The notes beneath the pieces were generated by a model, which did no database searches, had not been told where the DNA came from, and was given only the letters and a program-made list of their open reading frames with translations. DNA of 64,000 nt from Candidatus Uhrbacteria bacterium (lineage in GTDB: Bacteria > Patescibacteriota > Patescibacteriia > UBA9934 > GWF2-40-263). The DNA lies in assembly GCA_013204385.1 (NCBI GenBank), contig JABMNY010000031.1, forward strand, positions 1,168-65,167, given 5' to 3'. This document shows positions 26,835 through 57,678 of this stretch, piece after piece. A program made the translations under genes and the position numbers. Within the stretch, counting starts at the first letter, position 1. Every line of letters starts with the position of its first letter.

Positions 26835-26845
26835 ACGAAAGCGGA

Positions 26846-27463: not shown

Positions 27464-27489
27464 AGATTCAATATTAGTTCGTCAATAGA

Positions 27490-28305
27490 TTATTCAAGAA
27501 GACCTGGACCGTTTGGATTATACCCCGAAGCAACTTCATCACCGTCAGAATAGCCATCTCCATCTGTATCTGGATTCAATGGATCCGTTCCGTACTGAGC
27601 CTCCTGTGCGGTCGTCAGACCATCCGCATCCTCATCGGCCTCCTCATTAACTGAAGAATCTTCTTCTGGAACAGCTTGATCTTGTTGAGAGAGAGCGCTT
27701 AACACTAATTCGAGACAGTTCCCTTGAGCTTGTTCATCTATCATTTGATCACAATAGGATCGATCAAGTGTTTCTAAAGCAAGTTGCTGTAAAGGATCTG
27801 TAACAGCATCATCGATAAATTGCATCTGACAACTTCTCTTACTTGAGGTGAGAGAAATTAAGTCGCAATAGGAATGATCTTGCTTGTTAACTGCCAAGAG
27901 TCCATACACATCATCTAAACAATCCCTCATCCATTCCTCATCAGCAATGACCTTACAGTACGTATCCTCTACAACTGTACGAGCTAATGCCCAATGACAA
28001 TTATCCTGTTCTGTTTGTGAATCAAGAAGTAGACAAAGTTCGGACGATGCATGTGAAACAGCAAGATCCAAGATCTTTCCATTCTGACACGATTCAACAT
28101 TTTCAACCCCCTCGCATGCGTTCGAGGCATTCGTTGTAAGCTGTGAGACAGTCTCTTCCATCAAGAAGAATGACTGCTGACGCCCGTAAAATACACGAAA
28201 TAAAACGAACACCAAGACGATGAGAACAAGAACAATCCCGACACCAATCGCAATAGGCTTCCAGGGAATACTCCGTTCTTGCTGGGGATAATCATTCAAA
28301 TCCAT
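27490..28305 (-). CDS. bitopic membrane protein with Cys-containing repeats and a C-terminal TSP3-like motif, paralog 1
   Basis: TM (IAIGVGIVLVLIVLVFVLF), about six periodic Cys motifs (SYCDxxxxxxC), C-terminus DEDADGLTTAQEAQYGTDPLNPDTDGDGYSDGDEVASGYNPNGPGLL. Confidence 0.6.
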   Translation of the reverse strand: MDLNDYPQQERSIPWKPIAIGVGIVLVLIVLVFVLFRVFYGRQQSFFLMEETVSQLTTNASNACEGVENVESCQNGKILDLAVSHASSELCLLLDSQTEQDNCHWALARTVVEDTYCKVIADEEWMRDCLDDVYGLLAVNKQDHSYCDLISLTSSKRSCQMQFIDDAVTDPLQQLALETLDRSYCDQMIDEQAQGNCLELVLSALSQQDQAVPEEDSSVNEEADEDADGLTTAQEAQYGTDPLNPDTDGDGYSDGDEVASGYNPNGPGLLE

Positions 28306-28311: not shown

Positions 28312-31300
28312 TTATTCGTAAGGACAGTACGTTATATTGAAGTCGCTGAATTCCATTGTTCCAGTTCCATAAAATGCATTTCTGAGTGGAATCACCTGTT
28401 CCGTTGACTGACAGGCAAACGCTGTTGGAAATGGAAGTTCGACATTTGAACCTGATTGAACTTCACTTGTTGTAGTATAGGTTCCATCGTCATCCGTTGT
28501 CGTAAATGTTACCCGTGTCCCAAGAATGGAATCCACAATCGCGGCATACATCTCAGCAATTTCGTCTGAGCTGGATGCTGAAAACGCATAATCTCCCTCA
28601 CAATCTCCAGTGGACGTCACGCTACTCCACGCACATTCATTACTAGACATATGTGCCATATATCCCTTTAGATCACTGTCTGTTGTGACCGCTGCTGAGT
28701 AAATGAGGATGTCACTTCTTGGCACACCTTCCGTAGATCCATCAATAAGTACATCGGAGATCTCAGCTACACACGCAGGAACATCCGCATAATATGATGT
28801 CGATGGATAATTAGACCATGCATATCCAGAACATCCGGTAGACGAACCAACATTGAAAGTGCTATTGAGACCTGGATCTCCATCAGATAAGAGAACTACA
28901 ATTTTTACTTCGGCTGTAGATGCGCTCAGGATAGAAATAGCTTCACTCAATCCGTTATACGTAGGTGTTCCATTTACTACAGAATCGGCATAATCATCAA
29001 GGATACTCATCATGCTTGACTCCGACGAATATAAACTCAATCCAATATCAATTTCCGCTCCATCATCTACAGAACAATCTTCATCTTCACAATCAGCATT
29101 ATACTGACAGACATTGCCATCATCTGACCCCCCACTACAAAGTCCTGTTGATCCAGAGAAGGAGACGAGGGAAATCTGCATGGTCGCATCCAGTGAACCG
29201 TACGCATCAAAAAGATCTGAAACAGCATCTCGCGTTGCTTCAACCACATAGTCAATTCTTCGAATTCCAACAGGAGCTCCAGAAGCTTCACATGTCGACC
29301 CATCACATGATGAAGAACTTGTACACGCATCTCCGTCATTGGTTCCCCCATTACAATACTGATTCGTGTCCACATCCCAATCCATACTTCCTGAAAGATC
29401 CGTGACGAATACAATATCAACATCTGGATGCTCCACATCTTCATCATTAATATCTGCTGTAATCGATGTTGCAACACTGCAGGCTGGAATATAGAGCGCT
29501 GCATTATCAGGAGAATCGCCTTCATCATTCAGATAACTATAAAGCCTAATGGACTCTCCAGGAGTAGCTCCTAACGATTCACTCACAACAAATAATCCTG
29601 TCGTCTCATAAGATGTCGGACATGATGATCCGCAATTATCAGCGCAAATTGGTGCCACACAATCTCCTCCACTACAGGAATTGACGTCATTTCCTGATGT
29701 AAGCTCAGAAACCGTTCCACTACTTGCGTACGTTGTGTAGTTGAGTGTGCAATATTCTCCATTTTCCGTTCCCCCATTACAAACTCCAAGCCATCTACAG
29801 GTATAGCCATCTGAATCTGTTGTGTCATATTCCTCTGAAGCACAGGAGCCCGTTATGCTTCCTGATGTTGAATCATAATTCTTAAACGCGGTTGAATACG
29901 TTCCGTCACACACTTCAGAACCATTCACAACCCCATCTCCACAATAGGCTCCAGAGGTCGTCTTATACTGACAGATTGTGTTGCAATAATTACATGTACT
30001 GCCATAGTCGGCTTCACATAGCACTCCATTTCCTCCATGACTATCAACTTCCCCATCATCACAAGACTCGACGCCAACATAGACATAATCATCTCCACAG
30101 ACGTTTTCTTCACAGGTATTCAAACACGAATCATTGTTTGAGGAGTTTCCATCGTCGCACGCTTCATCTCCTTCCACTGTTCCGTTTCCACAAGTCTGAT
30201 CTCCTCCAACAGGACCCGTCCAAGTTGTTGGCCATTCACAAGATGAAGAGCAGGTTCGATAGCGATAAAGGTCGTATGTATTTGTAGAACATGCTCCACC
30301 ATTATCTTCACAATCTTCATTTGTATCTGTTGAATCACACGTATCTCCCGCATCATCCCCACCAATACAAATCGTTCCTGAACCCGCTGCTTCATATCCT
30401 GTCCCACCACAGGTATCCGTTCCATCACAATCACTGGTGGTCGTACAAGTTGTCACTCCATCAGAACAGAGTTTTCCTTCCCAGGATTCATAATCCCCGT
30501 CACAAGATTCACTTCCATTTACAATTCCATCTCCGCAAGAGAGCCCAGGAAGCGTGCAATTATACGCACAGTTATCTCCACCCGCATCATACTGTCCGTT
30601 TGAAGTTGCGCACCATGGAGAAGCAGTTGTTCCTGTTGCATCTGGACCTATTGTTGCCCAACTACTTGATTCTAAAATCACACTTGCATACGTGCTCGTT
30701 GTTCCACAATCACATTGCTCAGAACCAGCTAAATATCCATCTCCACAGGAGAATGAACCTGTGGCAGTACAAGTGTCTCCACAATGTCCGTAGGTTCCGT
30801 TCAATGAGCCATCATCACAATCCTCACCTGTTTCCACGACACCATTTCCACAATCATAAGGGATGCATTCTGCTCCTGCAAATTCTGCTTCTGTTTGATC
30901 TTGAAAATCTGAACAATCTGATAAACAGGAAACGGCAATCACTCCACCAGAAGCAGTGCAAGCAATGGTCATTGTATCTCCAATCTCACAACCTTCTAAC
31001 GCTCCTTGTGTTCCATCTCCACATAACGCTGAGTCTCCCCAAGTGCTTCCATCACAGAAGACCGGTGTCAATGAAAATCCGCTCATGACAGAACTTGGCG
31101 CGTTTCCTGTTGGATACTCAACTGTAATCGTTCCCTCGTCTGTAGAATCCGCATCTATATCTTCGGTCCATTCATATTCTCCAGAAAGTTCAAGGGTTGC
31201 ATAAAGTTTGTACGCCTCGCCTCCGACACTCTGATAGCCATACACATGTGAATTCTCTGGACACATAAACGTTCCAGATTCTCCGTTCCAACAAGAAGCA

Positions 31301-34300
31301 GAATCGTATCCGTCTTCTGAGCAGTTAAAAAATTCGTTTATTGGATCCGTTGGAAGTGTCGTTCCAAGTTCATTTGCAAGTGAGGCATTCCAAGAGCTCC
31401 AGATAGAGTTTGAGATTGCAGGAATAAACGTCCCAGATTGCACATCAGGAAACCCTACAACACAGACCTCTGTTCCAGGACAATCCTCATCTGCGTCACA
31501 AGATTGACCTTGTGTTACGGCACAATGTCCATTCTCCTCTCCGTAGGAATCGAGTGATGAAGCAAGGGCAGTCACGTCAATAAGTCGTTGCATGTCGCGT
31601 GTCAATTTTGCTTTTTGTCCATCACAGACAATAGTCTCTTCCTCAAACTCTTCATAACAATCCCCATCCCATTCACAGCTCACATACTCCTCATCCTCAT
31701 TCAGCGCATACGTTCCATCAGATTCATCCTGACACAAATTGATATTTGTCACTTCAAGATTATTCGCGTTAAACCGCCAATTCGTAAGCAATTGAGAGAA
31801 GATCTCCTCTGATTCTGCACTCGCATTGTCGTTATAGGAAACAACATACATGTTTGGATAGATATCTCCTGACGATTCAATAAGGTTTGCAGCTGCAGCA
31901 TACAGCGTATTTCCAGACTCAACCGCTGAATAGGAATCAAGTTCCGTCTGTGTAAATGCTCCCGTAAACTGTTGTTCCTCCACCCAATCAGCAGGTGAGA
32001 GATAACTTGCATTTGGAAGGACACGTACTCCAATCGCATCACTTGATCCTTCAACTTTAAAGATAATTTCTTGTCGAATCACCGATGAATCAAATGATGT
32101 GACATCGATTGGATCACCGAGCGCAGGAAGATCATCTTCTGTTCCATCTTCTCCTGCATCGCGACAGTAATAAAATGAGAAATAACTTGGGAGTACATCC
32201 TCCACGTATGGAAAACTTAAGGTTTCTGAAGCAAGGGAAGGCCATGGATTCTCACACAAAAGAGCTCTCACTTCTAGCGTTCCGGAAACAGTTCTTGCAG
32301 GAGATGATTCATCTGCATCCGTAGTTTCATCGTCTTCAATCTCAGCAGTAGATGGGTCAAACAACTCATCATCTGTAATGGTTGCAATCGCAAGCACGAT
32401 TTCACTTCCGTCATTTCCACTTGCGGTAAAACTACGAGTTGTGTCTTCTGGCTCCTCTGTCTCTGGGGTTATAACATTTGTTGAAGCAGAGTCTGTAATC
32501 GAAGATGCCCAAGACCAATCCCAATCATAGAGTCCTTCAATTGGAGAGATTTCTTGATATCCTCCAGCGCGATATGTTTGTGGTGTCGCGACAAACGCAT
32601 GCTCTTCTCCTGTTGTACTGAAATACTGAATACTCAAAGATTCATACTCTTCTGCATCCACATCCCCTGTATCCTCAAGAAGCACGCGATCAAGATCACA
32701 AATCTCTTCACCGATCGCAAATTTTTGACTGAAATATTCATCTTCGCAATCATCATCAATACAGAGAGTTACATCGTTTTGACTCAAGACACCTGTCTTT
32801 TCACTATCTGTTGGAGTCTCGTCGCCCACAACAACCAACTTATAGATTGCATTTTCTTGTAATAATTCACTGAAACGAAGATACACACGGGAGGTTCCAT
32901 CACCATTTTGCACGATCGAATAACTCGTGACCGGCACGTAACAGGAAAAAGTACTTGACGCCTGAACCTCACGACCAAACAACCCAAGAACAACTGATTT
33001 TATAAAATGCCAAATCTTTCCTCCGAAGCTCACAGACTCTGAACCAAGAGAACCAATGTACCCGGACGGACAATCTGCAATGTCGCTCACCGTCTCTTGA
33101 GCTCCGTCTCCATCTGAGTCAACGGAAACAAGATCAATGTAGAGATTTGAATCAAATTCATCCTCTTGAATTGTTCCATCCCCATCTAAATCCTCGGACG
33201 TTCCAAAGGTTGTCTCATCCATCGATTCTGAAAATTCAATCCATACAGCACTATTTCGACAGAACCCCTCATCCGTTCCTGCAAGAAATGCCACAGAGTT
33301 ATCTGCGGGAGAAAGTTCTCCAATTGTTGGACGTTCATAACAACAGTTACTTTCCCCACATCCCAAACCAGCCGCTCCACACGAATTATCTGTGGTACAA
33401 GCACACTGTAATCGAAGCGTTGCCTCTCCTTCCACATCCTCATCCACAACAACAGAAATGGTCGAGATAGCGTATCCTGTGTCTTCGTTTACTTCCGTTG
33501 GAGCACCTGTTGCAACTTGCGCAACACCATAATCTCCTGCTGAGAACGAGGCTGTTGAAAGGGCGTCACAATCCTCTGCGGTTCCAACAATGCCGTCGCC
33601 ACAAAAAGATGGTGTCGCATACTCGTACGACGACCCAAGCCAGAGACAACTGCTTGAACATCCCTCGTCTCCGTCACATGCTTCTCCGGTGTCTACATCT
33701 CCATTTCCACAACAGTTTGCTGAATCACTGGTTGGACACACACTGCTTCCTTCGTACAAACACTCAGAAGAACATCCATCGTCTTCCGCAGAATAATCAC
33801 CTGGGTCACAGTCTTCTCCTTCGTCAATGGTGCCGTCTCCACAAATGGCATAGACATCGTCTTCTGAAGCAGATCCTTCTAAGAGGCAATTCCTTGAACA
33901 ACCATCACCACTTGATGTGTTTCCATCATCGCAATCCTCACCTCCAGTATTTACCACCCAATCCTGTGTTCCATCTCCGCAGACTGAACCGATCGACCGA
34001 GCTCCCTCATTTTTACATGAAGAGGAGCATCCATCACCACTCGTAATGTTTCCATCGTCACAATCTTCTCCTCCCGCAGAGGCTGACCAATCTCGTACTC
34101 CATTTCCACAACAACCTGAACCTGAACGTTCACAGCTATCGCCAGAGTAATAAACACACTCACTACTTGCGCCAGAACAAACACCTCCTGAGAGAGAACA
34201 AGCTCCTACACAAGAACCTGAATCACAGACCCCGTCGTTGGAACACGATGTGTCTGCGTCCTCAAAATCTTCACACAAACCAGCTTCCGAACAGCTTCTG

Positions 34301-37300
34301 CTTTCACATCCTTCGTCTCCTACACAGGCATTACCCACATCTGAAGCAGATGTGCACATAGCGCTTGCACACGTCTCATTACAGGATGCGTCGTTTGTAC
34401 ACTCCGCTCCTGAGGAACTACATGTTGCATCACACTGTACTGATCCTTCATTTAAACACACAGCAGAACATCCATCTCCAGCCTCTGTCCCGCCATCATC
34501 ACATTCTTCGGAATCTTCTACTGATCCATTTCCACAAACTCCGTCAGCGATCGTGACAGGAGCCCCCGCATTCAAGCACGCTGCTGTACAGTAACTTGCA
34601 ATATCAGATGTCAGCTCGATCGCTCCATTTGAAATCATGTAGGAAACGACCTCATCTGAATCCGTGGTACTGGTACTCACTCCATTTTGATTTTGCGCGT
34701 CAGTCGAAACCCATGCATCCCAAAGGTAAGATCCTGACTGAAGCGTTTGACCCTGATCTGAACAATCATCAGGGGCTCCTAATGCAAATGCATCAAACTC
34801 TGCGCGATCTCCCACATAGTAGAGCGTTGCGACAGATGGATCGAGTGTAAGCGAATCAACCGCACAACTCACCGCATCATTTTTTGTTCGAAACACCCAT
34901 GAGAACGCATCTTCAAAATACCGGTTATCATCCGTTCCGTAATTGGAACCTGAGTCAGAAAGAGCAACTCCCGTACAAGAATAAATTTCTGTCGCATCAA
35001 CAACTACGCGATACCAGGTATTGGGCTCTAAGGTCTCTCCATCATTAAAATTAATATAGAACTTCTGGGTTGAATCTTCTTCTGTCTCACAGGTATCGCC
35101 TGAAAAACTCACTGAGGCAACTTCTGCAAACTCCGTCAGTTCTGATGTTTCACACAATGAGTTGTCACATTCATATAATGTGACAGCGCCTGCTCCAATC
35201 GTTCCTCCATCCATCTTTGTATTAAATTCAGCCCAAGGCAACGCGTTCACACACGCGGTTGTACATTGTGGAAAGTAATCTTCAATTTCTGGATCGAGAA
35301 AATTAATCGTCAACTCCCCCTCACCCGATGGATCTCCTTCTGCGTCTGTAACGGTTGCGGTAATAATGGCTGGATCATCTGAAGTCGTTTCAGATTGTGC
35401 ATACACTTCATTCACACACACACCAGACCATTCAGATGTTGGAATTAACACATCGTCTGAAACAGAATCCCAATACAAGGTATATCCAGCACAACTCAAC
35501 GCAACACAACTATCGTTTTGTGCGGTCAGCTGAGCTGTGTAGTCAACGTATGCTTGTTCTGTTTGCGTATATTCCCCTGGACGCACATTCACGTCTCCCA
35601 CCTCACATAATTCCGTAGAGCTACTTGTTGTAAACTCCCAATCAAAATCTTCCGCGAGATATCCTCCATCTGCACTTTGGATTTGATCTCCTCCCTGAAG
35701 AGAGACCTGGTAATGTGTCCCCGCTTCAAACAACCCAGACGTAGGTTGCCAGGAAAATCCTGTTTCGTCTGGAGTAGGCATTGTGCCTTCGACAACCTCC
35801 CAAGTCTTACACTCTCCTTCACTTGCCAAGACACAAGACTCGTCCTCGTCTTCACAATCTCCAACATCGTCACACGCATCTCCTGAAAACGAGCAATAGC
35901 GGTCTTCTGCGGTTTCTTCTTCAAGGGTAAATTCTGAACTACAAGAACGAACAATAACCGTCGATGTCGTAAGTGTATCGCCGTTCATCGCCATATTAAA
36001 CTCAGCTTGCACACTTGCATTCAAACAAATATCGTCTGGGTCGCTCCATCCATCCCACGGAGATGGAGAAGTTCCATCTTCATCACAGGCAAGAATGACA
36101 CGCGGGGTATTTGGTGTAATCCCTGTCGTAATTTTAAATGCATAATGTGCTGACACTTCTTCTGTCTCGTCACAGGTTTCTGAACACGAACCATTAGAGC
36201 AACAACTCTCCCCCTCAGAACACAGGTCTGCATCCTCGCGACAATCTCCTACACTAAATGTCACAGAATTAGATGAATACCCACTTTCAGACTCTTCAAT
36301 ATAAACAGGTCCAGTTGCGGCTTCATCTGGAACGATCACAGATGAAATTTCATCATTTGCCCAAACCCCAAAAGTGGTCTCTTGTGTGGAATAAAAGACA
36401 ACCGTTCCATCATCAGACCCAAGATTCTCTCCGTAGAGCGTAATTTCAGATTCCGCTGGTCCAGCAGAAGGATCGATATTACAGATCGATGGTCCGGGCA
36501 CCTCATCAAGAACAACAAAATCCTCTGCTCCTGATGTATTTCCATCCGCGCGCTCAACAGTCAATGCGTGCGTGATTGCCTCAATCGCATCCTCATCTTC
36601 TGTAAGATACGTCTCAGGGACCTTCATGGTAATAGAGGTGTCATGCCAAAAATCTTCACCACAGACATCAGGAAAATCTGTATCTCCTAATGCAGTATAC
36701 CCAAGCGATTCGTTATCAAAGAAAACAGATCCAGTAGACGTTCCAAATCCCGTTCCATAAATCGTAATGTACTGACCTGCTGGCCCCCAATTGTCGGCAT
36801 CATCACATGTGGCCCCTTCACTACAATCATCATCAGATCCACAATGGGTATTATCATCTGAACATGCCTGCCAACCTGAATCAATAAAAGAAATGATTGG
36901 ACTAGAAGAACTTGAAGAGTCAGCTACGGTAAATGTAACTTTATTTGATCCAACACGGACTGATTCACAAGACCCTCCATCATCTCCACAATCGTCGTCA
37001 TCTCCACAGTACTCAAGTGTTTCAGAGCACCAAGACGCAGCACAACTCTCACCTGCATCTGTGTCACAATCTTCATCGTCTGTACAAGTATCTCCTGTAG
37101 CTACGTTATCTGTATCAACACACAGATAGTCCCCCGTAAACACTTGTCCACTATATCTTCCGGAATTCACATTTGGAACGGAAAGATTCAAGAGTGTGTC
37201 GGACCATGAAACATAGGTACTTGCTTCGTAGTTTGTAAAATAAAACGTAGAAGATCCTTGTGAATCTCCAAAACTGTTTCCGTACACTTCGATGGTAGAT

Positions 37301-38976
37301 CCATAGGTGTCTGAATCTGGATCAAGGAGACAAATTCCAGGTCGCGCAATCGCATTTACATCAAAGTCTGAAATGGATGGACCATAATCATCATCTGTTC
37401 GTTCTGTTTCGTCATCACTTGTCACAACAGAGATCGGTCCATCAATTGCCCCAGAAGGGACTTGGACAATAATCTCAGAATCTGACCATTGAATCTCAGA
37501 ATTACATTCGTAGGCAGATGCAGAGGTCTCGTCACTATTTTCTGTTCCCAAGAAATAGAGAACACCTTCCTCATCTCCAAACCCTTCTCCAGAGATTGTA
37601 ATCAGATTTCCTTCAGCTCCATCTCCTGCAGAAACACTCTCAATTTTTGGAATGGTAACGCATTGTCCGTCGACACATTGTCCGCTTGCACAATCGGAAT
37701 CTTCAGAACATGAATCTCCATCGCAAGACCCACAGTAGTAAGCACTTGAAGAATCTCCTCCGCAATCCACTTCTGTTTCACCCAAATCTTCATCGAGCAC
37801 TTCGTTATTACAATTTGCTGCACGCAACACAATTGAAACACGAGATGCCGTATCAGAATTACCGGCACAATCGTATCCTTTTGCCCAAATGTTATACGTT
37901 TCATTTGTGGTATATCCTTCTGTGTCCCATTCCTCAGCTGTATCACTAAAGAATGCATTTTCAACATTTCCTCCTAGCAGTTCACCTGCATTTGAATAAT
38001 CAACTCCTGAGGAATAGATCGCTTCCTCATCATCAATGACATAAAAATCAACGGTTGAAACACCACTATCATCTGATGTCAGAGCTTGTAAAAGTTCAAT
38101 AGAACCCGCATAAAAACTCTCACCGTTTTCAGGAGCATCGATCTCAACGGTTGGATCTGCGATATCCACCTCTGATCCTGTTGTAAAACTAAAGGAGCAT
38201 GGATACGAACTTGAACAGGTCAGCGATGAACCAGCTGATGAATCGATTACCGTTGAATCGAGATCAATCGTATAACTACTGAGGGGATCAAAACAGGACT
38301 CATCTTCATATGGACTGTCACATGCTTGCGAAGGGGTAAACGTTACTGTACGACTCGAAACAATGAACGTTCCCTCAACAGCATCTCCTCCAGCATCTCG
38401 AATAAGGATACCTTCTTCCACAGTGTCCCCATCAATTTTCTTTGAGAAAACAAACTGGAGCTGAAGATTCTGCAATGCCTCTGCGCACTCTGTGTTCACA
38501 GAACTCAAATAAAATGTGGAGCTTCCACTTCCGTCTGTATAGGAACCTGACGAGGACGAGCTTCCAGAAATATCACCACTCGTCGCCCCCACAAGCGCAT
38601 TTAAAATAAACTGTGCGATCGCAAAACTTGAAAATACCAGTATGAGTCCGATCACCGAATTAATGATGATCTTCTTAGCCTTTGCAATCCTCTCAGGACT
38701 TCCTCCTGCCGTCATGTACACAAACCCTCCGTAGAGTATGAACACGACCGTCACAACTCCCACGAGCGTAATTGCCGTTCGAATGAGACGTGCAATGATC
38801 ACAGTGATGCTTGCTGTGGTGGAGAACCCAGCAGTCTCTGCGAATGACTCAAGATTCACATCTTGAGCAAATACTGGCGCGGCAACGAAAATCCCAACAC
38901 ATAATATTAGTGCAAGGAAAACGCCTAAGTAAGTTGCCCGAGTGAATCTACGCATGTCGTTAAAGTTCAGTTTCAC
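28312..38976 (-). CDS. giant (3554 aa) cysteine-rich secreted surface protein: signal peptide, VirB2/TrbC-like two-helix membrane module, Ig-like domains, four IPT/TIG domains, two clusters of Myxococcus-type Cys-rich repeats and a C-terminal vWA domain; putative adhesin
   Basis: One uninterrupted 10.6-kb ORF. N-terminus: signal peptide ending FAQ, then IIARLIRTAITLVGVVTVVFILYGGFVYM...AKAKKIIINSVIGLILVFSSFAIAQFIL. IPT/TIG-like blocks (e.g. PKIESVSAGDGAEGNLITISGEGFG...). Many CGDG/CGNG-x5-8-E-x-CDDGN units. MIDAS motif DIVFVTDLSGSM. Plus-strand His-rich ORFs across this span are antisense artefacts. Confidence 0.85.
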   Translation of the reverse strand: MKLNFNDMRRFTRATYLGVFLALILCVGIFVAAPVFAQDVNLESFAETAGFSTTASITVIIARLIRTAITLVGVVTVVFILYGGFVYMTAGGSPERIAKAKKIIINSVIGLILVFSSFAIAQFILNALVGATSGDISGSSSSSGSYTDGSGSSTFYLSSVNTECAEALQNLQLQFVFSKKIDGDTVEEGILIRDAGGDAVEGTFIVSSRTVTFTPSQACDSPYEDESCFDPLSSYTIDLDSTVIDSSAGSSLTCSSSYPCSFSFTTGSEVDIADPTVEIDAPENGESFYAGSIELLQALTSDDSGVSTVDFYVIDDEEAIYSSGVDYSNAGELLGGNVENAFFSDTAEEWDTEGYTTNETYNIWAKGYDCAGNSDTASRVSIVLRAANCNNEVLDEDLGETEVDCGGDSSSAYYCGSCDGDSCSEDSDCASGQCVDGQCVTIPKIESVSAGDGAEGNLITISGEGFGDEEGVLYFLGTENSDETSASAYECNSEIQWSDSEIIVQVPSGAIDGPISVVTSDDETERTDDDYGPSISDFDVNAIARPGICLLDPDSDTYGSTIEVYGNSFGDSQGSSTFYFTNYEASTYVSWSDTLLNLSVPNVNSGRYSGQVFTGDYLCVDTDNVATGDTCTDDEDCDTDAGESCAASWCSETLEYCGDDDDCGDDGGSCESVRVGSNKVTFTVADSSSSSSPIISFIDSGWQACSDDNTHCGSDDDCSEGATCDDADNWGPAGQYITIYGTGFGTSTGSVFFDNESLGYTALGDTDFPDVCGEDFWHDTSITMKVPETYLTEDEDAIEAITHALTVERADGNTSGAEDFVVLDEVPGPSICNIDPSAGPAESEITLYGENLGSDDGTVVFYSTQETTFGVWANDEISSVIVPDEAATGPVYIEESESGYSSNSVTFSVGDCREDADLCSEGESCCSNGSCSETCDETEEVSAHYAFKITTGITPNTPRVILACDEDGTSPSPWDGWSDPDDICLNASVQAEFNMAMNGDTLTTSTVIVRSCSSEFTLEEETAEDRYCSFSGDACDDVGDCEDEDESCVLASEGECKTWEVVEGTMPTPDETGFSWQPTSGLFEAGTHYQVSLQGGDQIQSADGGYLAEDFDWEFTTSSSTELCEVGDVNVRPGEYTQTEQAYVDYTAQLTAQNDSCVALSCAGYTLYWDSVSDDVLIPTSEWSGVCVNEVYAQSETTSDDPAIITATVTDAEGDPSGEGELTINFLDPEIEDYFPQCTTACVNALPWAEFNTKMDGGTIGAGAVTLYECDNSLCETSELTEFAEVASVSFSGDTCETEEDSTQKFYINFNDGETLEPNTWYRVVVDATEIYSCTGVALSDSGSNYGTDDNRYFEDAFSWVFRTKNDAVSCAVDSLTLDPSVATLYYVGDRAEFDAFALGAPDDCSDQGQTLQSGSYLWDAWVSTDAQNQNGVSTSTTDSDEVVSYMISNGAIELTSDIASYCTAACLNAGAPVTIADGVCGNGSVEDSEECDDGGTEAGDGCSAVCLNEGSVQCDATCSSSGAECTNDASCNETCASAMCTSASDVGNACVGDEGCESRSCSEAGLCEDFEDADTSCSNDGVCDSGSCVGACSLSGGVCSGASSECVYYSGDSCERSGSGCCGNGVRDWSASAGGEDCDDGNITSGDGCSSSCKNEGARSIGSVCGDGTQDWVVNTGGEDCDDGNTSSGDGCSRNCLLEGSASEDDVYAICGDGTIDEGEDCDPGDYSAEDDGCSSECLYEGSSVCPTSDSANCCGNGDVDTGEACDGDEGCSSSCLWLGSSYEYATPSFCGDGIVGTAEDCDALSTASFSAGDYGVAQVATGAPTEVNEDTGYAISTISVVVDEDVEGEATLRLQCACTTDNSCGAAGLGCGESNCCYERPTIGELSPADNSVAFLAGTDEGFCRNSAVWIEFSESMDETTFGTSEDLDGDGTIQEDEFDSNLYIDLVSVDSDGDGAQETVSDIADCPSGYIGSLGSESVSFGGKIWHFIKSVVLGLFGREVQASSTFSCYVPVTSYSIVQNGDGTSRVYLRFSELLQENAIYKLVVVGDETPTDSEKTGVLSQNDVTLCIDDDCEDEYFSQKFAIGEEICDLDRVLLEDTGDVDAEEYESLSIQYFSTTGEEHAFVATPQTYRAGGYQEISPIEGLYDWDWSWASSITDSASTNVITPETEEPEDTTRSFTASGNDGSEIVLAIATITDDELFDPSTAEIEDDETTDADESSPARTVSGTLEVRALLCENPWPSLASETLSFPYVEDVLPSYFSFYYCRDAGEDGTEDDLPALGDPIDVTSFDSSVIRQEIIFKVEGSSDAIGVRVLPNASYLSPADWVEEQQFTGAFTQTELDSYSAVESGNTLYAAAANLIESSGDIYPNMYVVSYNDNASAESEEIFSQLLTNWRFNANNLEVTNINLCQDESDGTYALNEDEEYVSCEWDGDCYEEFEEETIVCDGQKAKLTRDMQRLIDVTALASSLDSYGEENGHCAVTQGQSCDADEDCPGTEVCVVGFPDVQSGTFIPAISNSIWSSWNASLANELGTTLPTDPINEFFNCSEDGYDSASCWNGESGTFMCPENSHVYGYQSVGGEAYKLYATLELSGEYEWTEDIDADSTDEGTITVEYPTGNAPSSVMSGFSLTPVFCDGSTWGDSALCGDGTQGALEGCEIGDTMTIACTASGGVIAVSCLSDCSDFQDQTEAEFAGAECIPYDCGNGVVETGEDCDDGSLNGTYGHCGDTCTATGSFSCGDGYLAGSEQCDCGTTSTYASVILESSSWATIGPDATGTTASPWCATSNGQYDAGGDNCAYNCTLPGLSCGDGIVNGSESCDGDYESWEGKLCSDGVTTCTTTSDCDGTDTCGGTGYEAAGSGTICIGGDDAGDTCDSTDTNEDCEDNGGACSTNTYDLYRYRTCSSSCEWPTTWTGPVGGDQTCGNGTVEGDEACDDGNSSNNDSCLNTCEENVCGDDYVYVGVESCDDGEVDSHGGNGVLCEADYGSTCNYCNTICQYKTTSGAYCGDGVVNGSEVCDGTYSTAFKNYDSTSGSITGSCASEEYDTTDSDGYTCRWLGVCNGGTENGEYCTLNYTTYASSGTVSELTSGNDVNSCSGGDCVAPICADNCGSSCPTSYETTGLFVVSESLGATPGESIRLYSYLNDEGDSPDNAALYIPACSVATSITADINDEDVEHPDVDIVFVTDLSGSMDWDVDTNQYCNGGTNDGDACTSSSSCDGSTCEASGAPVGIRRIDYVVEATRDAVSDLFDAYGSLDATMQISLVSFSGSTGLCSGGSDDGNVCQYNADCEDEDCSVDDGAEIDIGLSLYSSESSMMSILDDYADSVVNGTPTYNGLSEAISILSASTAEVKIVVLLSDGDPGLNSTFNVGSSTGCSGYAWSNYPSTSYYADVPACVAEISDVLIDGSTEGVPRSDILIYSAAVTTDSDLKGYMAHMSSNECAWSSVTSTGDCEGDYAFSASSSDEIAEMYAAIVDSILGTRVTFTTTDDDGTYTTTSEVQSGSNVELPFPTAFACQSTEQVIPLRNAFYGTGTMEFSDFNITYCPYE
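28777..29439 (-). other. von Willebrand factor type A domain of the giant protein (about aa 3180-3400)
   Basis: DIVFVTDLSGSM MIDAS motif (DxSxS) followed by the alternating beta/alpha pattern (...IVVLLSDGDPG...). Confidence 0.6.
29887..31029 (-). other. Cys-rich repeat cluster 2 of the giant protein (about aa 2650-3030)
   Basis: CGNGVVETGEDCDDGSLNG; CGDGIVNGSESCDGD; CGNGTVEGDEACDDGNSSNNDSCLNTCEEN; CGDGVVNGSEVCDG. Confidence 0.5.
33577..34545 (-). other. Cys-rich repeat cluster 1 of the giant protein (about aa 1478-1800)
   Basis: Units such as CGNGSVEDSEECDDGGTEAGDGCSAVCLNEG and CGNGVRDWSASAGGEDCDDGNITSGDGCSSSCKNEG resemble the Myxococcus cysteine-rich repeat (established family, recalled from memory). 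Confidence 0.5.
36247..37650 (-). other. region encoding four IPT/TIG-like domains of the giant protein (about aa 443-910)
   Basis: Positions derived by counting residues; motif pattern P.I.S..P..G..GT.ITI.G.GFG......V.F...... repeated four times. Confidence 0.5.
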
Positions 38977-40840
38977 TATTATTTGGAAGAACGTAATCGC
39001 TAGGAGCTGGACTCACGCTTTGTTCTGCTTCAACCGTTTCCTGCCACCCTGTCTGACATGCAGATCGAGATGCAATCCCGTTACAACAATAAGGTTTTTC
39101 TTCATCTCTTCCCTCCGTACACGTTGATCCAGGTCCTATGGCTGGATACATACAGATCTGGTAGGCACTCTTAATGTCATTTGTAAGAACAGGCCAGTAG
39201 TCCCATCCTCCCTCATCTGTACTTACAAAGCTTGGATGTTCAATAAGCACGGTCGTTCGTTCGGTTTCATCATTATTTTCCTTCCGAACAGCAAACCACG
39301 ATTCATAATACGGATCGGGCCACAATGACACACTATGCGTTTTGACTGTTGAAGACTTGAGGTACGTATTAAACGTGATTTCCACATCGTTTGTCTGACT
39401 AATCTCATCTTCTTCAACTCCAGGATCTAATCCTTCTTCTATAATCTGTGGAACTGTGTCTTCAATTTCATCGGTTGTTGTAAAATTCCATTCCTTATTA
39501 TCCGTCTCATCCCCGTCAGAGCACTCAATCGTATCAGAGGCGGAACCACAGGCTTCTCCATCATGATCCCCATCTAATGAGTTTGCAGCGGCGTCAACCA
39601 GACCATCAAACGTAAACCCGGTGGACTCTGCTTGAGGCGCTTCATCTTCATTGATGGTAGCAGCCTTAGCAACCACATCAACAAGTTGATTTGAAGGAAG
39701 ACAGTAAATTGTGTCTCCACAAGGATCTTCTCCACACGCATCCGTTGTCGTGAAACTGAGTGTGCGATAAGCATTACTAATCTCGAAGGTTCCCTCTACC
39801 ACCTCACCAGCCTCGTTATAGACTAAAATATTTGTAAACAAATCCTCATCCCCAATATACGATCCTGTACTTGCCACAGGATCCATCGCCTCAGAGAAGT
39901 TAATTTCAATGGTGATATTTCGAGGTTCTTGTGCATCTTGCTGAGGAACAACAGATGTCACATATGGAGGGGTCAAATCAATTTCTGTTGAAACTTCAAA
40001 TGTCCAACTATATCCACTCGCATATGCTCCAGAAAATGCAGATGAGCCTGATTCTTTTTCAATATTCGTCGTCAGCGTAACCGTATAATTCGTATCCTCT
40101 TCTGCTGAACCAAGATACTCAACAGGATCAAAGACGAACACTTCAAGATCTTCATCATACGTCACGACCACAGCCTCTGACTCCAATGCTTCACCTGCTC
40201 CCTGTTCTGTTGGATAGATGATAATACTATCCGCATTCAAATAATCATCTGTTGAATCGTCCCCATCATAATTACTCACAATTGATTCTGGATTGATTGC
40301 TTCTTTGAAACTGACAAAAATCCGTGTATTTCGAGCAATGTCCCGCGCATCACGCTCAGGATAATGGTCATCTAAGACACCTCCTCCTAAGGAACCAGAC
40401 AAAGGTTCAGAATACGCGTCAGCGACCGCTGAGGCTGTCCCTGTGAATGCCGCCTCAAGCAAACGACTTAAAATGAATGAAGCGATGCTATAGGCAGAAA
40501 AAATAATGAAGAGCCCAATGATAGACTGCTGAAGAACCTTCTTAGCTTTTTTAATTGGTTCTACTTCCCCACGAGCAAGGAGATAGAGAAATCCAGCATA
40601 AATAACCAGGCAAACAAAGATGATTCCAACAACCGTCAACGCGACACGAATGACGCGCGCAATAATAATCGCAATGTTGTCTGTCGGAAGCGTTGAAGCT
40701 GTTCCGAATTGTTCAAATGCCGTTTGCTGAGCAAACGTCGGATGAACATTCACAAGAAAAAATAAAACAGAAAACGCTACGACTCCAAGAAGGAGCGCGC
40801 GCAATGTGGGTGCTTCAAATTTCATAAAGGGACGGTCCAT
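38960..40840 (-). CDS. 626-aa secreted protein with the same VirB2/TrbC-like two-helix N-terminal module followed by Ig-like (Big_5/SbsA-type) domains; partner of the giant protein
   Basis: Signal peptide ending FAQ; IIIARVIRVALTVVGIIFVCLVIYAGFLYLL...KKAKKVLQQSIIGLFIIFSAYSIASFIL aligns with the giant's N-terminus; TPPYVTSVVPQQ...INFSEAMD Ig-like block; 17-nt overlap with the giant gene. Confidence 0.7.
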   Translation of the reverse strand: MDRPFMKFEAPTLRALLLGVVAFSVLFFLVNVHPTFAQQTAFEQFGTASTLPTDNIAIIIARVIRVALTVVGIIFVCLVIYAGFLYLLARGEVEPIKKAKKVLQQSIIGLFIIFSAYSIASFILSRLLEAAFTGTASAVADAYSEPLSGSLGGGVLDDHYPERDARDIARNTRIFVSFKEAINPESIVSNYDGDDSTDDYLNADSIIIYPTEQGAGEALESEAVVVTYDEDLEVFVFDPVEYLGSAEEDTNYTVTLTTNIEKESGSSAFSGAYASGYSWTFEVSTEIDLTPPYVTSVVPQQDAQEPRNITIEINFSEAMDPVASTGSYIGDEDLFTNILVYNEAGEVVEGTFEISNAYRTLSFTTTDACGEDPCGDTIYCLPSNQLVDVVAKAATINEDEAPQAESTGFTFDGLVDAAANSLDGDHDGEACGSASDTIECSDGDETDNKEWNFTTTDEIEDTVPQIIEEGLDPGVEEDEISQTNDVEITFNTYLKSSTVKTHSVSLWPDPYYESWFAVRKENNDETERTTVLIEHPSFVSTDEGGWDYWPVLTNDIKSAYQICMYPAIGPGSTCTEGRDEEKPYCCNGIASRSACQTGWQETVEAEQSVSPAPSDYVLPNNSETEL

Positions 40841-40937
40841 GGCGATTACTTCAGGATCAATTGGATACCATTGATCATGTGTAAATCTATTGTATCTTAT
40901 TTAGACCGTTCTGACAGATAAAGATTGTGGATAGAAA

Positions 40938-40967
40938 CAAAAAAACGGGCAAGCCCCGTTTTTTTGT
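40938..40967. terminator. bidirectional terminator (A7-acgggcaagccccgt-T7) between the yqeY fusion and the 626-aa gene
   Basis: Read directly. Confidence 0.55.
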
Positions 40968-40987
40968 TTGATGAACTGTTGTAGATG

Positions 40988-41752
40988 TTAACTTATTTGT
41001 TGTAAGGCAATCGTACAAAATGCAAAAAGCGCCGCAACAATCATGGTAGAAAAAACACCGATGGTAATTTTACTAATGGCTCCATCATGTTCTTTATCTC
41101 GATAAGAAGCCGTCATGTATTGGAAACCCCCATTCAAGATAAGTGTGATTGCCACGATCCCTAACCAGAGAGTGAGCACTCGGAACATCCGTAAAAGGAA
41201 TTCTGTGTACGACACTCCATTTGCAAAGTTTTCAACTAACGGAATTGCCGCCTGCGCCTCATGAGCAACAAGACTCATCGCAAACATGACTGGAATAAAT
41301 GCTCCAAGGAGTGTCCCAACAATCTGCTTCACACGAGTACCGTCTGCGCGTCCTGCCACCGCCTTCATGGCGACACCCATCGCGCGTCCCATCTCCTCCT
41401 TACTTGTCACCCCACTTGCTTCAATCGCCTCTTTTACAATGACCATCAATTCCTCGTCAGGCATCTGTGCAGGAAGATACTGTTCAAGCACAACGACTTC
41501 CACCTGTGAACTCACTGCCATATCTTCACGTCCACCTGTCACAAAAGATTCAATAGAATCTTTTAATTGTTTGACCTGCGACTTAATAACATCTTGAACT
41601 TCTGCATCTGAAAGTTCATGCTGAAGATCTATTTGTTTATTCTTAATCGCAGATAGCAACAAACGCAACGTAGATAACGTTGCGTTGTCTTTGGCTTTCA
41701 TGGCCAATTTCATGTTCTGTGTAATCGTCTCTATCAAAGACATACGACTCAA
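40988..41752 (-). CDS. yqeY: GatB/YqeY-domain protein fused to a C-terminal VirB2/TrbC-like two-helix membrane module
   Basis: N-terminal 150 aa (TQNMKLAMKAKDNATLSTLRLLLSAIKNKQIDLQ...) is a typical YqeY. The C-terminal 100 aa (FLLRMFRVLTLWLGIVAITLILNGGFQYM...AISKITIGVFSTMIVAALFAF) has the same architecture as the N-termini of the two downstream surface proteins. Directly follows rpsU as in Firmicutes. Confidence 0.7.
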   Translation of the reverse strand: MSRMSLIETITQNMKLAMKAKDNATLSTLRLLLSAIKNKQIDLQHELSDAEVQDVIKSQVKQLKDSIESFVTGGREDMAVSSQVEVVVLEQYLPAQMPDEELMVIVKEAIEASGVTSKEEMGRAMGVAMKAVAGRADGTRVKQIVGTLLGAFIPVMFAMSLVAHEAQAAIPLVENFANGVSYTEFLLRMFRVLTLWLGIVAITLILNGGFQYMTASYRDKEHDGAISKITIGVFSTMIVAALFAFCTIALQQIS

Positions 41753-41754: not shown

Positions 41755-42003
41755 TTATCGACCTCTTCGGTTTGTTCCTCGAGTTGTTTCATCGAGTTGT
41801 CCAATACGAATGAGATATTGTCGTTTTGCTCCGGTGATAATTCGACGAAGGGCACTTTTCTTCATCTTGGCTTTATTCGGCTTGTCTTCGCGAAAGCGGA
41901 TCTTTCTTGTCTGAAGCATGTTTCCACTTTGCTGAACACGACGACTAAAACGTCGATAGATTCCTTCAAAACTCTCACCTTTACGGCGTTTTACGTTAAC
42001 CAC
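41755..42003 (-). CDS. rpsU: 30S ribosomal protein S21
   Basis: MVNVKRRKGESFEGIYRRFSRRVQQSGNMLQTRKIRFREDKPNKAKMKKSALRR; basic, S21-like. Confidence 0.75.
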   Translation of the reverse strand: MVNVKRRKGESFEGIYRRFSRRVQQSGNMLQTRKIRFREDKPNKAKMKKSALRRIITGAKRQYLIRIGQLDETTRGTNRRGR

Positions 42004-42043: not shown

Positions 42044-42072
42044 ATTATGCAAAAAAACCCCTCTTTTGTCAA
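42044..42072 (-). promoter_or_regulatory. promoter upstream of rpsU (minus strand: TTGACA - 17 nt - CATAAT)
   Basis: Hexamers read from the reverse complement. Confidence 0.45.
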
Positions 42073-42080: not shown

Positions 42081-43499
42081 TTAAGCAGTTTCAACAGGAG
42101 ACTGCATAATAGGATCGACCCCCTCTTCATGACGAAGTTTCTTTTTCACAAGTCCCACAACTTTCTTTACATCAACAATTTCCTGAGCTCCTGATTCCAT
42201 GTCACGAATAATAATCGTTTCATCAAGAACCTCCTTTTGACCTAGGATCAAAGTAAACTGAACCCCAAGCTTATTAGCAACATCCAACTGTGCCTTTAAT
42301 GAGTTTTTTCCAAACGCTTCAGCAATAGGCACACCCGCATTTCGGAAATCCTCAAACAACTTTAACCCTACACGTCGAGAAGCATCACCGAGTTGTGCAA
42401 AAAAGACATGTGGTTTCGGTCTCTCAAGTGGATTAATTCCTTTTGCTTCAAGAGCTCGAGAAATGCGTTCCATTCCAAGCGCAAATCCACAGGCGGGAGT
42501 TGGGCGTCCTCCAAGGAGTTCAACGAGCCCATCGTAGCGACCTCCCCCTCCAAGAGCAGATTGCGCCTTTGTTCCCTCATCATCTGCAAGAACGAACTCA
42601 AAGACGGTGTGCGTGTAATAATCTAATCCGCGCACAAGATAGGGATTAAGAACGAACGGAACCTCGACTTCCTCCAAAAACTCAAGCACCTTCATGAAAT
42701 GTTCTTTTGACTTATCATCAAGCCAGTCAAGGATCTGAGGAGCTCCATCAAGAAGTTCTCGCGTGACTTCCTCTTTACTATCCAAAATGCGAAGCGGATT
42801 CTTTTGCAGTCGACGCTTATCATCATCTGAAAGTTTACTTCGGTGTTGACGAAAATAGGCAACAAGCTCAGCAAGATACGCCTGTCGACATTCGGTTGTT
42901 CCGATGGAATTGATTTGAACTTTTACATCCAATCCAAGATCTTTGAAAATTTTATATCCAATCACGATCAATTGCGCATCAACGATCGGCTCATCGACAC
43001 CAAAACTTTCAAAGCCCACCTGATAAAACTGACGGTATCGTCCGGCTTGCGGTCGATCGTGTCGAAACATTGGCCCTGTGTACCACATCTTTACAGGTTG
43101 CGGACGGTCAAGCATCCCATGACCAATATAGGCTCGTGCTGCGCTCGCAGTTGCTTCAGGACGCATTGCAACAGAACGGTTAGATGGATCTGTAAACGTA
43201 TACATCTCCTTATCGATAATATCTGTTCCTTTTCCAATCGTTCGATTAAACAATTCTGAACGTTCTAGAATAGGAAGGTCAACACGATCGAAACTGTACG
43301 CCTCTGCAATAGATCGCACCGTATCGCGAATCAAATTCCATCGGCCTTGATCTTCAGAAAGAATATCACGAAATCCTCGCAAAAGATCATAGGACTTAGA
43401 TAATTTTGGTTCGTCGCTCTCATCTTTTTTTACTTCTACAGGCTTTGACGGAGGTTTAGAAACGACCGCCTTTGGAGCCACCTTCTTTTTTCCAGGCAT
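42081..43499 (-). CDS. hisS: histidine--tRNA ligase with a Lys-rich N-terminal extension of about 35 aa
   Basis: Class II aaRS motifs (RPEATASAARAYI; YTGPMFRHDRPQAGRYRQFYQVG) and an anticodon-binding domain; the extension is MPGKKKVAPKAVVSKPPSKPVEVKKDESDEPK. Confidence 0.9.
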   Translation of the reverse strand: MPGKKKVAPKAVVSKPPSKPVEVKKDESDEPKLSKSYDLLRGFRDILSEDQGRWNLIRDTVRSIAEAYSFDRVDLPILERSELFNRTIGKGTDIIDKEMYTFTDPSNRSVAMRPEATASAARAYIGHGMLDRPQPVKMWYTGPMFRHDRPQAGRYRQFYQVGFESFGVDEPIVDAQLIVIGYKIFKDLGLDVKVQINSIGTTECRQAYLAELVAYFRQHRSKLSDDDKRRLQKNPLRILDSKEEVTRELLDGAPQILDWLDDKSKEHFMKVLEFLEEVEVPFVLNPYLVRGLDYYTHTVFEFVLADDEGTKAQSALGGGGRYDGLVELLGGRPTPACGFALGMERISRALEAKGINPLERPKPHVFFAQLGDASRRVGLKLFEDFRNAGVPIAEAFGKNSLKAQLDVANKLGVQFTLILGQKEVLDETIIIRDMESGAQEIVDVKKVVGLVKKKLRHEEGVDPIMQSPVETA

Positions 43500-43520: not shown

Positions 43521-44129
43521 TTAAAGGTTGTATTCAGGAACATCAAACGTTCCGATGCGTGAGAGTGGAAGCCCCCGTACCCACACCCGGCCAATCACAT
43601 CATCTCGATGAATTGGGCCAAAACTTCTTGAATCGAGTGAGGCGTCTCTATTGTCACCAAACACATAGTATTCATCTTCGCCGAGGGTCACTCTTACTTT
43701 TCCAGTCGTTTGTTCTCCCCCAAGGTACGTTTCCTCTAGGACAAATCCGTTTGGATGCTCTGTATTGTAAACAGTAATGTTTCCTCCTGTTACCTCGATC
43801 GTCTCCCCGGGAAGGCCGATAATGCGCTTGATAAAAAACTGACTCGGATCACGTGGATATCGGAAGACGAGAATTTCTCCACGGAATGGATCACGAAATC
43901 GATAGGAAAGCTCATCAATAATAAGGTATTCGTGATCATAGAAATTTGGTTCCATGGATGCCCCCTTTACATAAAAAGGTTGAATCAAAAAATACCGAAT
44001 CGGAATAATAATGGCACTTGAAATCAAAACGATTTGAACCACTTCAAACAAAAATGAAGCAACAGATCCCCCTACTGGCCCAAAACGTTGATAAAATTTC
44101 TCTTCAATAGATGGAAGTCGAATGTGCAT
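43521..44129 (-). CDS. lepB: signal peptidase I
   Basis: VKGASMEPNF (Ser box), ...FIKRIIGLPGETIEV (Lys box), and a GDNRDAS box. Confidence 0.9.
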   Translation of the reverse strand: MHIRLPSIEEKFYQRFGPVGGSVASFLFEVVQIVLISSAIIIPIRYFLIQPFYVKGASMEPNFYDHEYLIIDELSYRFRDPFRGEILVFRYPRDPSQFFIKRIIGLPGETIEVTGGNITVYNTEHPNGFVLEETYLGGEQTTGKVRVTLGEDEYYVFGDNRDASLDSRSFGPIHRDDVIGRVWVRGLPLSRIGTFDVPEYNL

Positions 44130-56592: not shown

Positions 56593-56595
56593 AGG

Positions 56596-57369: not shown

Positions 57370-57447
57370 AACAGTAGCGCAATTATACCTAAATTTGGGT
57401 TCAAGCGAAAGTTGACGTATGATGAATCTATAAACGTAAACAATCAT

Positions 57448-57678
57448 ATGCCAAAACAGGAAAATGATTTTCTCAATATGCTTCGTGACGCCGTCGGTGG
57501 AGCGGTTGCAGGACTGATCACAGGACTCGTCTTGGGGATCGCGATCCAGTTCATCAGTTATATCGTGCTTCCAATAGAGTTTCGTGATGGACCTCAAGTC
57601 ATTGCTCCATTCCTAGGAATGGGATTCGGAACCCTCGTAGGAGCTATTTTAGGAGGAATGGTGAGTTTAAAGAAATAG
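57448..57678 (+). CDS. small two-TM glycine-zipper membrane protein
   Basis: MPKQENDFLNMLRDAVGGAVAGLITGLVLGIAIQF...GMGFGTLVGAILGG. Confidence 0.4.
   Translation: MPKQENDFLNMLRDAVGGAVAGLITGLVLGIAIQFISYIVLPIEFRDGPQVIAPFLGMGFGTLVGAILGGMVSLKK

Follow-up and report, generated by a model that had tools for sequence, protein, structure and literature searches.

The locus described here raises the question of why YqeY, a widespread protein that is usually encoded in an operon with ribosomal protein bS21 and is still without known function, should end in a pair of pilin-like membrane helices. The DNA analysed is a 64-kb stretch from a Candidatus Uhrbacteria bacterium (the window), in which a two-helix membrane module is present in exactly three open reading frames (ORFs), all on the minus strand: at the C-terminus of a YqeY protein and at the N-termini of two surface proteins of 626 and 3554 residues. 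An earlier note on this DNA had proposed that the three adjacent genes share one module, and reciprocal hidden Markov model (HMM) searches with decoys bear this out. The answer that we favour, with a probability of about 0.6, is that the first gene encodes a membrane-tethered, probably cleaved YqeY-propilin within a chromosomal cluster of pilin-anchored surface proteins. The module-bearing features are listed below; the interval singled out earlier (38960–41752) contains two of the three copies, whereas that of the giant protein (~38587–38955) lies just outside it.

40988–41743, minus strand: coding sequence of the YqeY–pilin-module fusion, 251 residues, with ATG at 41743 (the mechanically called ORF runs from TTG at 41752)
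41306–41743, minus strand: YqeY domain, residues 1–146, predicted to be cytoplasmic (PF09424, 148.7 bits, E 1.5e-43)
41249–41323, minus strand: internal signal-anchor-like hydrophobic helix, residues ~141–165, from hydropathy, site statistics and AlphaFold2 (AF2); predicted cut A165/A166
40991–41248, minus strand: divergent PF18895-type hairpin, residues 166–251, from hhalign, HMM cross-matches, AF2 and conservation
38960–40840, minus strand: 626-residue surface protein with signal peptide, pilin module, Big_5 Ig-like domains and Cys-rich C-terminus
40460–40840, minus strand: signal peptide and PF18895 hairpin of the 626-residue protein, residues 1–127; predicted cut after TFA37/Q
28312–38976, minus strand: 3554-residue giant surface protein, probable ATG at 38955
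38587–38955, minus strand: signal peptide (VFA/Q) and PF18895 hairpin of the giant protein

The membrane module and its family

Homology between the three copies is evident from profile comparisons in both directions. An HMM built solely from the C-terminal 112 residues of 120 fusion homologues was searched against all 835 window ORFs of at least 40 residues, and aligned over nearly its whole length with two N-termini, that of the giant protein (34.1 bits, E 1.1e-9) and that of the 626-residue protein (32.2 bits, E 4.3e-9), the next-best ORF scoring 10.8 bits. In the reverse test a profile of stand-alone PF18895 pilins matched only these three ORFs, giving 92.7 bits for the 626-residue protein and 24.7 bits (E 1e-6) for the YqeY tail, with no other match at E<=1. 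The maximum reached by either profile among 7,963 reversed decoy ORFs was 9.2 bits. Direct alignment of 45 YqeY tails with 38 pilins by hhalign (98.3%, E 2.2e-14, 95 columns) places the motifs GGF.(Y/W)MTA and A..K....G in register.

The Pfam family concerned is PF18895 (T4SS_pilin), whose gathering score of 26.6 bits is passed by the giant protein (39.0 bits) and missed by 0.1 bit by the 626-residue protein (26.5 bits). A database search with the giant N-terminus returned 50 proteins, all of them PF18895 and mostly stand-alone proteins of 117–216 residues. When this N-terminus and 37 of its relatives were scanned individually, all 38 matched PF18895 and 13 of the 38 also touched PF04956 (TrbC/VirB2; best E 2.9e-6). 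The gathering score of PF04956 (27.9 bits) is reached by none of the three window proteins, the best being the 626-residue protein (16.2 bits, E 0.012), while the YqeY fusion and the giant protein have no match to it at all. The VirB2/TrbC identity put forward earlier holds as membership of PF18895 with recurrent contact to PF04956, but the PF04956 threshold is not reached and no solved pilin was matched. A second family, NF045849, aligns over positions 7–79 of 80 with the giant protein (29.2 bits, E 5.5e-7) and gives 22 bits for the 626-residue protein, both below its cut-off of 40; the YqeY tail is not matched by it. On sequence grounds, the YqeY tail is a divergent member of PF18895 that is recognised at profile level only.

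Identification of the module as a type IV pilin, a family against whose models the earlier note had proposed a search, was rejected: N_methyl (PF07963) gave no match at E<=1, and the sequences have AxA sites of type I and a hairpin of two helices instead. HdeD-like and DUF6097 membrane proteins were likewise considered and rejected.

Searched by hmmsearch against 1.84 billion representative proteins, the tail profile matched 1,935 of them at E<=1e-3. YqeY fusions or their fragments head this list, and the remainder comprises small PF18895 pilins, ‘poly-pilins’, giants with an N-terminal module and one PG_binding_1–pilin protein. Among the top library matches the fused tail subfamily occurs solely as YqeY fusions or fragments, although a weaker match, the short protein P0200, has a similar loop. 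The poly-pilins P0177, P0194, P0195, P0208, P0190 and P0196 carry PF18895 modules in tandem in each chain; P0177 has six in 552 residues (236 bits) and the others two to five. In P0277 a peptidoglycan-binding domain (PG_binding_1) precedes the module, an unusual architecture for the family.

Structure and history of the fusion

The fusion protein is 100% identical to the NCBI entry ‘GatB/YqeY domain-containing protein [Candidatus Uhrbacteria bacterium]’. Its YqeY domain is complete, spanning positions 2–142 of the 143 in the PF09424 profile, and is followed by a hydrophobic stretch ending HEAQA/AIPL, a poorly conserved linker of ~15 residues and two long hydrophobic helices. The hairpin itself comprises a variable ecto-linker, helix 1 (~176–211), an RD..H loop (R215, D216) and helix 2 (~217–250). 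The loop between the fusion helices reads TASYRDKEHDG and that of the N-terminal copies (A/G)…AKAKK, so that the canonical pilin loop GGNEEkvaKAKK is replaced in the YqeY tail by S.RD..H. AF2 models the YqeY domain with a predicted local distance difference test (pLDDT) score of ~93–96 and the hairpin, also confidently, at 87–97. In the model the last YqeY helix runs unbroken across the junction into the first membrane segment (H135–159). Unfused orthologues terminate at a RVKxIVxxLL motif, exactly where the first membrane helix of the fused form begins.

Given that the window is a metagenome-type assembly and that hydrophobic helices can mimic similarity, one might invoke mere transmembrane composition, a mis-assembly or a frameshift through which yqeY became linked to a small pilin gene, the frameshift being an outcome that the earlier note named as a refutation. 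Such an artefact is very improbable. The uninterrupted ORF recurs at full length in more than 100 clusters of proteins whose assemblies are independent, and ~35 loci from different projects, counting one genome per species, carry the full fusion; the search for the same fusion in related genomes that the earlier note proposed thus has a positive outcome. The best 120 of 617 matches at E<=1e-3 cover 87–100% of the query at 47–78% identity and derive from NCBI, JGI, ENA and Logan assemblies, some of them occurring on up to 16 contigs; their precomputed Pfam annotation is YqeY/GatB_YqeY only. The restriction of the fused tails to YqeY proteins among the top library matches (the weaker P0200 aside), profile scores far above those of reversed decoys, and the register of GGF.YMTA and A..K....G likewise speak against chance resemblance of hydrophobic sequence.

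When YqeY domains are placed on a neighbour-joining tree, the fused forms, among them one cut by a contig end (L034), all fall into a single clade whose sister is the unfused Uhrbacteria-type YqeY. Across 100 full-length fusions, pairs of sequences are on average 64% identical over the YqeY domain; the mean falls to 38% for the signal-like helix and 22% for the linker, and is higher again for the hairpin, at 52% (helix 1), 43% (loop) and 39% (helix 2). Within the tail, R188, G195 and G229 are invariant, and GGF and R215-D216 nearly so. The fusion is thus genuine, old, of single origin and under purifying selection.

Candidate intermediates with a single helix after YqeY, proposed from tblastn matches to residues 1–155 or 1–177, were discarded: their ORFs stop at ~146 residues and the additional match is the signal peptide of the neighbouring gene in another frame. 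Two apparent distant fusions (L047 and L049; 35% identity over residues 10–244) likewise proved to be an unfused YqeY plus the next gene. Eleven loci labelled ‘uncultured Gammaproteobacteria’ (third-party annotation metagenome-assembled genomes, MAGs) or ‘Lentisphaerae bacterium GWF2_44_16’ (L004, L006–L008, L017, L019, L024, L025, L027, L029 and L033) carry the Uhrbacteria-type fusion and, where downstream DNA is present, the same gene order; mislabelling or bin contamination is probable.

The neighbourhood is conserved more widely than the fusion. The order yqeY, a pilin-module protein of ~600–750 residues and a giant pilin-module protein is kept in more than 45 loci irrespective of whether YqeY is fused, the middle gene reaching ~1,100 residues in loci labelled Magasanikbacteria. 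The same order is found with unfused YqeY in genomes labelled Magasanikbacteria, Nomurabacteria and other Uhrbacteria, which indicates that the neighbourhood is older than the fusion and contradicts the earlier suggestion of a fusion formed upon insertion of the locus. Small stand-alone pilin genes (~125–200 residues) are additionally present between the ~650-residue and giant genes in L041, L043, L054, L055 and L070, and the number of pilin copies in the cluster is therefore variable.

Conservation of the neighbourhood makes a functional link between YqeY and the pilin-module proteins plausible, although plain operon inertia may also account for it, and a selected clade-wide fusion combined with adjacency where the genes are unfused is classical evidence for such a link. 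Taken to its limit as a ‘Rosetta stone’, the fusion would mean that YqeY, a presumed tRNA- or RNA-binding protein, operates where a pilin-based structure of the envelope meets the cytoplasm. These bacteria are episymbionts with little biosynthetic capacity, and their YqeY might, for example, deliver nucleic acid or nucleotide-bearing cargo to a VirB2-like conduit or receive it from one, or link translation with the assembly of the giant surface proteins. We regard this as a long shot, although if true it would provide the first functional context for YqeY and for PF18895 modules that are independent of a type IV secretion system (T4SS).

Topology, processing and relation to type IV secretion

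Hydropathy analysis places hydrophobic segments of the fusion protein at residues ~141–160, 182–208 and 222–250, in agreement with the two-helix hairpin predicted earlier and with a signal-like helix preceding it. The flanking charges fit a predicted topology with YqeY inside, linker outside, loop inside and C-terminus outside. The signal-like segments end in AQA/A in the YqeY copy, TFA/Q in the 626-residue protein and VFA/Q in the giant protein, so the FAQ ending noted earlier applies to the two N-terminal copies and not to that of YqeY. Judged by sequence, the segment has the hydrophobic core, helix breaker and small residues at −3 and −1 that characterise signal peptidase I substrates, and the type I signal, AxA site, two helices and short charged loop of the PF18895 architecture are all present, the topology being predicted.

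The cleavage motif is conserved. Position −1 is Ala in 119 of 120 homologues and position −3 is small in 117 (A in 76, V in 37, T in 4), while −2 is bulky and variable and −4 is mostly P, D or E (83/120). A simple anchor would have no need to retain a −1 Ala and a small −3 residue within an otherwise variable region, and their retention favours cleavage after Ala165. This bears directly on an alternative in which pilin function has been lost and the tail serves as an uncleaved three-helix tether for YqeY. The tail is certainly highly divergent, with its S.RD..H loop, its separate long-branch clade and, for the window copy, a failure to reach the Pfam threshold, and the gene is probably transcribed with rpsU and is followed by a likely terminator, all as such a tether might be expected to be. 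However, a tether has no need for near-invariant Ala −1 and small −3 residues on the outer face, nor for invariant Gly and Arg residues and 52% identity in helix 1, and two of its three helices would be superfluous. We therefore consider a plain anchor improbable.

Our data are better accommodated by the YqeY-propilin model. Here, the two Ig-domain surface proteins of 626 and 3554 residues would be held in the membrane by N-terminal PF18895 modules, each consisting of a Sec signal peptide and a two-helix hairpin with its short loop towards the cytoplasm. A divergent third copy was joined, once and in frame, to the last helix of YqeY within a single sub-clade of Uhrbacteria. YqeY would remain cytoplasmic, and residues ~141–165 would span the membrane as an internal signal-anchor. 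Cleavage by signal peptidase I after Ala165, on the outer side of the membrane, would yield two products, a YqeY held by a tail anchor and a pilin-like hairpin of 86 residues whose distinctive RD..H loop faces the cytoplasm. A lepB gene lies three genes upstream of the fusion gene, and LepB is possibly the enzyme for the three AxA sites. The fusion would most likely serve to retain YqeY at the membrane and to provide a hairpin subunit of a specialised kind beside the pilin-anchored surface proteins, with whose modules the fusion hairpin may associate. Topology, cleavage, co-assembly of this kind and any part in a pilus or T4SS are inferences. The out-in-out arrangement predicted for the hairpin explains how very large extracellular domains (Big_5, TIG and Cys-rich repeats) can follow the module on its C-terminal side and how the module can be repeated in tandem.

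Whether the modules are subunits of a genuine secretion pilus is a separate matter. PF18895 comprises the VirB2-like pilins of Patescibacteria and is found in 1,948 assemblies, the pilins often being arrayed in sets of 2–11 genes and lying near virB4 in 1,135 assemblies (PMC12102498, PMC12857230, PMC10633639). In Southlakia epibionticum the pilin array is essential (Wang et al. 2023, PMC10633639), and few envelope components other than PF18895 pilins have been demonstrated to be indispensable in a patescibacterium grown in culture. The window modules might accordingly be true VirB2-type pilins of a VirB4-driven T4SS encoded elsewhere, the 626-residue and giant proteins serving as adhesin-bearing tip or minor pilins and the YqeY hairpin as a pilin with YqeY as its leader. 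The family name, the sub-threshold links to TrbC/VirB2 and to a Mycoplasma pilin-like protein of an integrative and conjugative element (ICE), and the essential pilin arrays of Patescibacteria T4SS loci are in keeping with this, as are the long leaders cut by signal peptidase that are typical of TraA, TrbC and VirB2. Set against these points, no VirB4, VirB6, VirD4 or PrgI-like gene was found within the 64-kb window; the cluster is embedded in housekeeping genes, and its conservation does not depend on T4SS genes; and a 3554-residue subunit is hard to place in a helical pilus except at its tip. A check for Walker-A motifs in nine ORFs, of which eight had no Pfam match, likewise revealed no T4SS ATPase.

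Survey data point in the same direction. Table S1 of PMC12102498 gives VirB4 as ‘No’ for three of the four fused-clade genomes of ~1 Mb, which are MAGs and may be incomplete: CG10_big_fil_rev_8_21_14_0_10_48_16 (L002), the nearest relative of the window, RIFOXYB12_FULL_58_10 (L028) and RIFCSPLOWO2_01_FULL_47_17 (L035). The same table gives ‘Yes’ for the fourth, CG_4_9_14_3_um_filter_50_9, which favours the pilus. Together with the T4SS-less window these data make a T4SS pilus role doubtful, and we think it unlikely, if somewhat less so than the plain anchor. The presence of PF18895 modules in genomes without detected VirB4 also implies that annotating every PF18895 match as a T4SS component may be wrong.

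Several observations weigh against the YqeY-propilin model itself. Pfam finds no T4SS ATPase or channel family in the 43 window ORFs of at least 150 residues or in the rpsU ORF. VirB4 is recorded as absent from the three fused-clade MAGs named above and, among 36 of the Uhrbacteria listed in PMC12102498, as present in 18 with the other half lacking it. The window's own YqeY tail gives no PF18895 match in a single-sequence scan, only 9 of 45 homologous tails do so individually (best E 4.4e-5), and in a neighbour-joining tree the fused modules form a separate long branch that is not nested among the modules of their neighbours. A PDB sequence search with the YqeY-tail profile gave no match, one with the pilin profile gave only spurious ‘Pizza’ designer proteins and no solved pilin, and fold searches returned generic long alpha-hairpins and no solved conjugative pilin. 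The model also assumes cleavage of a signal sequence that lies behind a folded domain of 140 residues. Lastly, between the fusion gene and that of the 626-residue protein lies a strong hairpin resembling a terminator, so that co-expression with the neighbours is not implied.

No prior description of a YqeY–pilin fusion was found in the literature searched (YqeY with Patescibacteria or pilin; PF18895), in line with the earlier view that it is undescribed. More generally, the ‘T4SS pilin’ module emerges as a versatile building block, which anchors surface proteins of 600–3500 residues and occurs in tandem within single chains.

The surrounding genes and comparison with known systems

Expression of the fusion can be considered in the light of the genes and signals that flank the three module-bearing genes:

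43521–44129, minus strand: lepB, signal peptidase I (PF10502, 137 bits)
42081–43499, minus strand: hisS
42044–42072, minus strand: sigma-70-like promoter upstream of rpsU, TTGACA-17-CATAAT, recognised by consensus matches only (11/12)
41755–42003, minus strand: rpsU (ribosomal protein bS21), ORF of 82 residues (PF01165, E 6.7e-5; 23 bits, gathering score of 27 not reached)
40935–40969, minus strand: 15-bp hairpin with A- and U-runs after the fusion stop codon, likely the intrinsic terminator of the rpsU–yqeY unit
40889–40917, minus strand: weak promoter-like site ahead of the 626-residue gene, CTGTCA-17-TACAAT (9/12 consensus matches)
25782–28305, minus strand: immediately downstream of the giant gene, three membrane proteins that each span the membrane once and have extracellular Ca-binding TSP3 repeats

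The rpsU gene lies directly upstream of yqeY, with 11 nt between the end of the S21-like ORF and the fusion ATG. The hairpin that follows the fusion gene has a folding free energy (dG) of −19.3 kcal/mol (z −6.3), and none of 200 shuffled sequences folds as well. Its A- and U-runs lie on both sides, so that it looks like a bidirectional intrinsic terminator; it was missed by a simple terminator scan. The number of promoter-like sites in the region is not above shuffle expectation. From this arrangement the fusion is probably expressed with bS21 and apart from the two surface-protein genes, which are almost contiguous, the giant gene starting 5 nt past the stop codon of the 626-residue gene on our reading of the sequence.

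The 626-residue protein matches Big_5 with 54.5 bits, and the giant protein contains Big_5, Big_7, TIG and Cys-rich acidic repeats downstream of its pilin module, its Big_7 and DUF4215 matches both being sub-threshold. Within this protein, Cys-rich acidic ‘myxo_disulf_rpt’ repeats (TIGR02232, 5 copies) lie at residues ~1470–1510 and ~2930–2955. The proteins with acidic bacterial TSP3 repeats may be part of the same surface cluster. Beyond their genes are ybeY-like and dgkA-like ORFs, read from translations with no family scan, and then ftsA and ftsZ. Other window genes are of housekeeping or surface-protein type and include those for IF3, pyk, htrA-like, der, pth, dprA, topA, relA, parAB, tmRNA and tRNAs.

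Three further features of the window stand apart from the module. A tmRNA gene at 5562–5982 (plus strand) encodes the tag ANNVMAMIKNAFSVPSFAPVLA. The partition genes parA and parB at 55729–57597 (minus strand) may place the window near a replication origin. Two ORFs of 826 and 434 residues at 59075–62798 (minus strand) have no Pfam match, are rich in Gly, Thr, Ser and Asn and appear beta-helix-like; the 826-residue ORF has a signal peptide and overlaps the other by 62 nt on the same strand, and the two could represent a single surface-protein gene split by a frameshift. As to lineage, the exact identity of the fusion protein with a Uhrbacteria entry assigns the window to the ultra-small CPR/Patescibacteria, and one published dataset files Uhrbacteria under the GTDB class ABY1.

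The closest known counterparts of the window module are the PF18895 pilins (Quinonero-Coronel et al. 2025, PMC12102498; PMC10633639), which come from the same phylum and share with it a signal peptide, two helices and a short cytoplasmic loop, the motifs GGF.(W/Y)MTA and AK..I...(V/I)IGL, the side-by-side arrangement of paralogues and homology at profile level. The members described so far are small stand-alone proteins of ~110–170 residues, often with virB4 as a neighbouring gene, whereas in the window the module serves as the N-terminal anchor of proteins of 626 and 3554 residues and as the C-terminal appendage of a cytosolic protein, in a housekeeping locus without T4SS genes. The YqeY copy differs further in having an RD..H loop in place of a basic one.

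The module resembles the TrbC/VirB2/TraA propilins (PF04956) in that two hydrophobic helices form a hairpin whose ends both lie outside, and in weak but recurrent HMM similarity. These conjugative propilins have unusually long leaders that are removed by signal peptidase I; in the fusion, by contrast, the ‘leader’ would be a folded protein domain of 165 residues, and no VirB3 or VirB4 is encoded alongside. Proteins of the NF045849 type (Mbov_0395 family, the pilin-like conjugal transfer protein of Mycoplasma ICEs) are components of monoderm conjugation of ~80 residues, whereas the window context is not an ICE. Similarity to this family fits the reported ancestry of Patescibacteria T4SSs in the mating-pair-formation class FATA (MPF-FATA; PMC12102498).

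YqeY (PF09424) resembles the tail of GatB and in its ordinary form is a soluble protein of ~147 residues, whereas the window form is joined to three membrane helices. Minor or tip pilins such as TcpB, CofB and GspK of type IV pili and type II secretion use a small pilin module to bear a bulky extracellular domain. This concept is common to them and to the window proteins, although fold and biogenesis are unrelated and the window proteins have no class III prepilin signal. The pairing of rpsU with yqeY is the usual bacterial arrangement (PMC13374519), and the GlnRS–YqeY chimera of Deinococcus demonstrates that YqeY can function as a fused module (PMC1865053). In Deinococcus the partner is a cytosolic tRNA synthetase, and in the window it is a set of membrane helices. 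The architecture described here is a new form of the known PF18895 family rather than a new kind of system.

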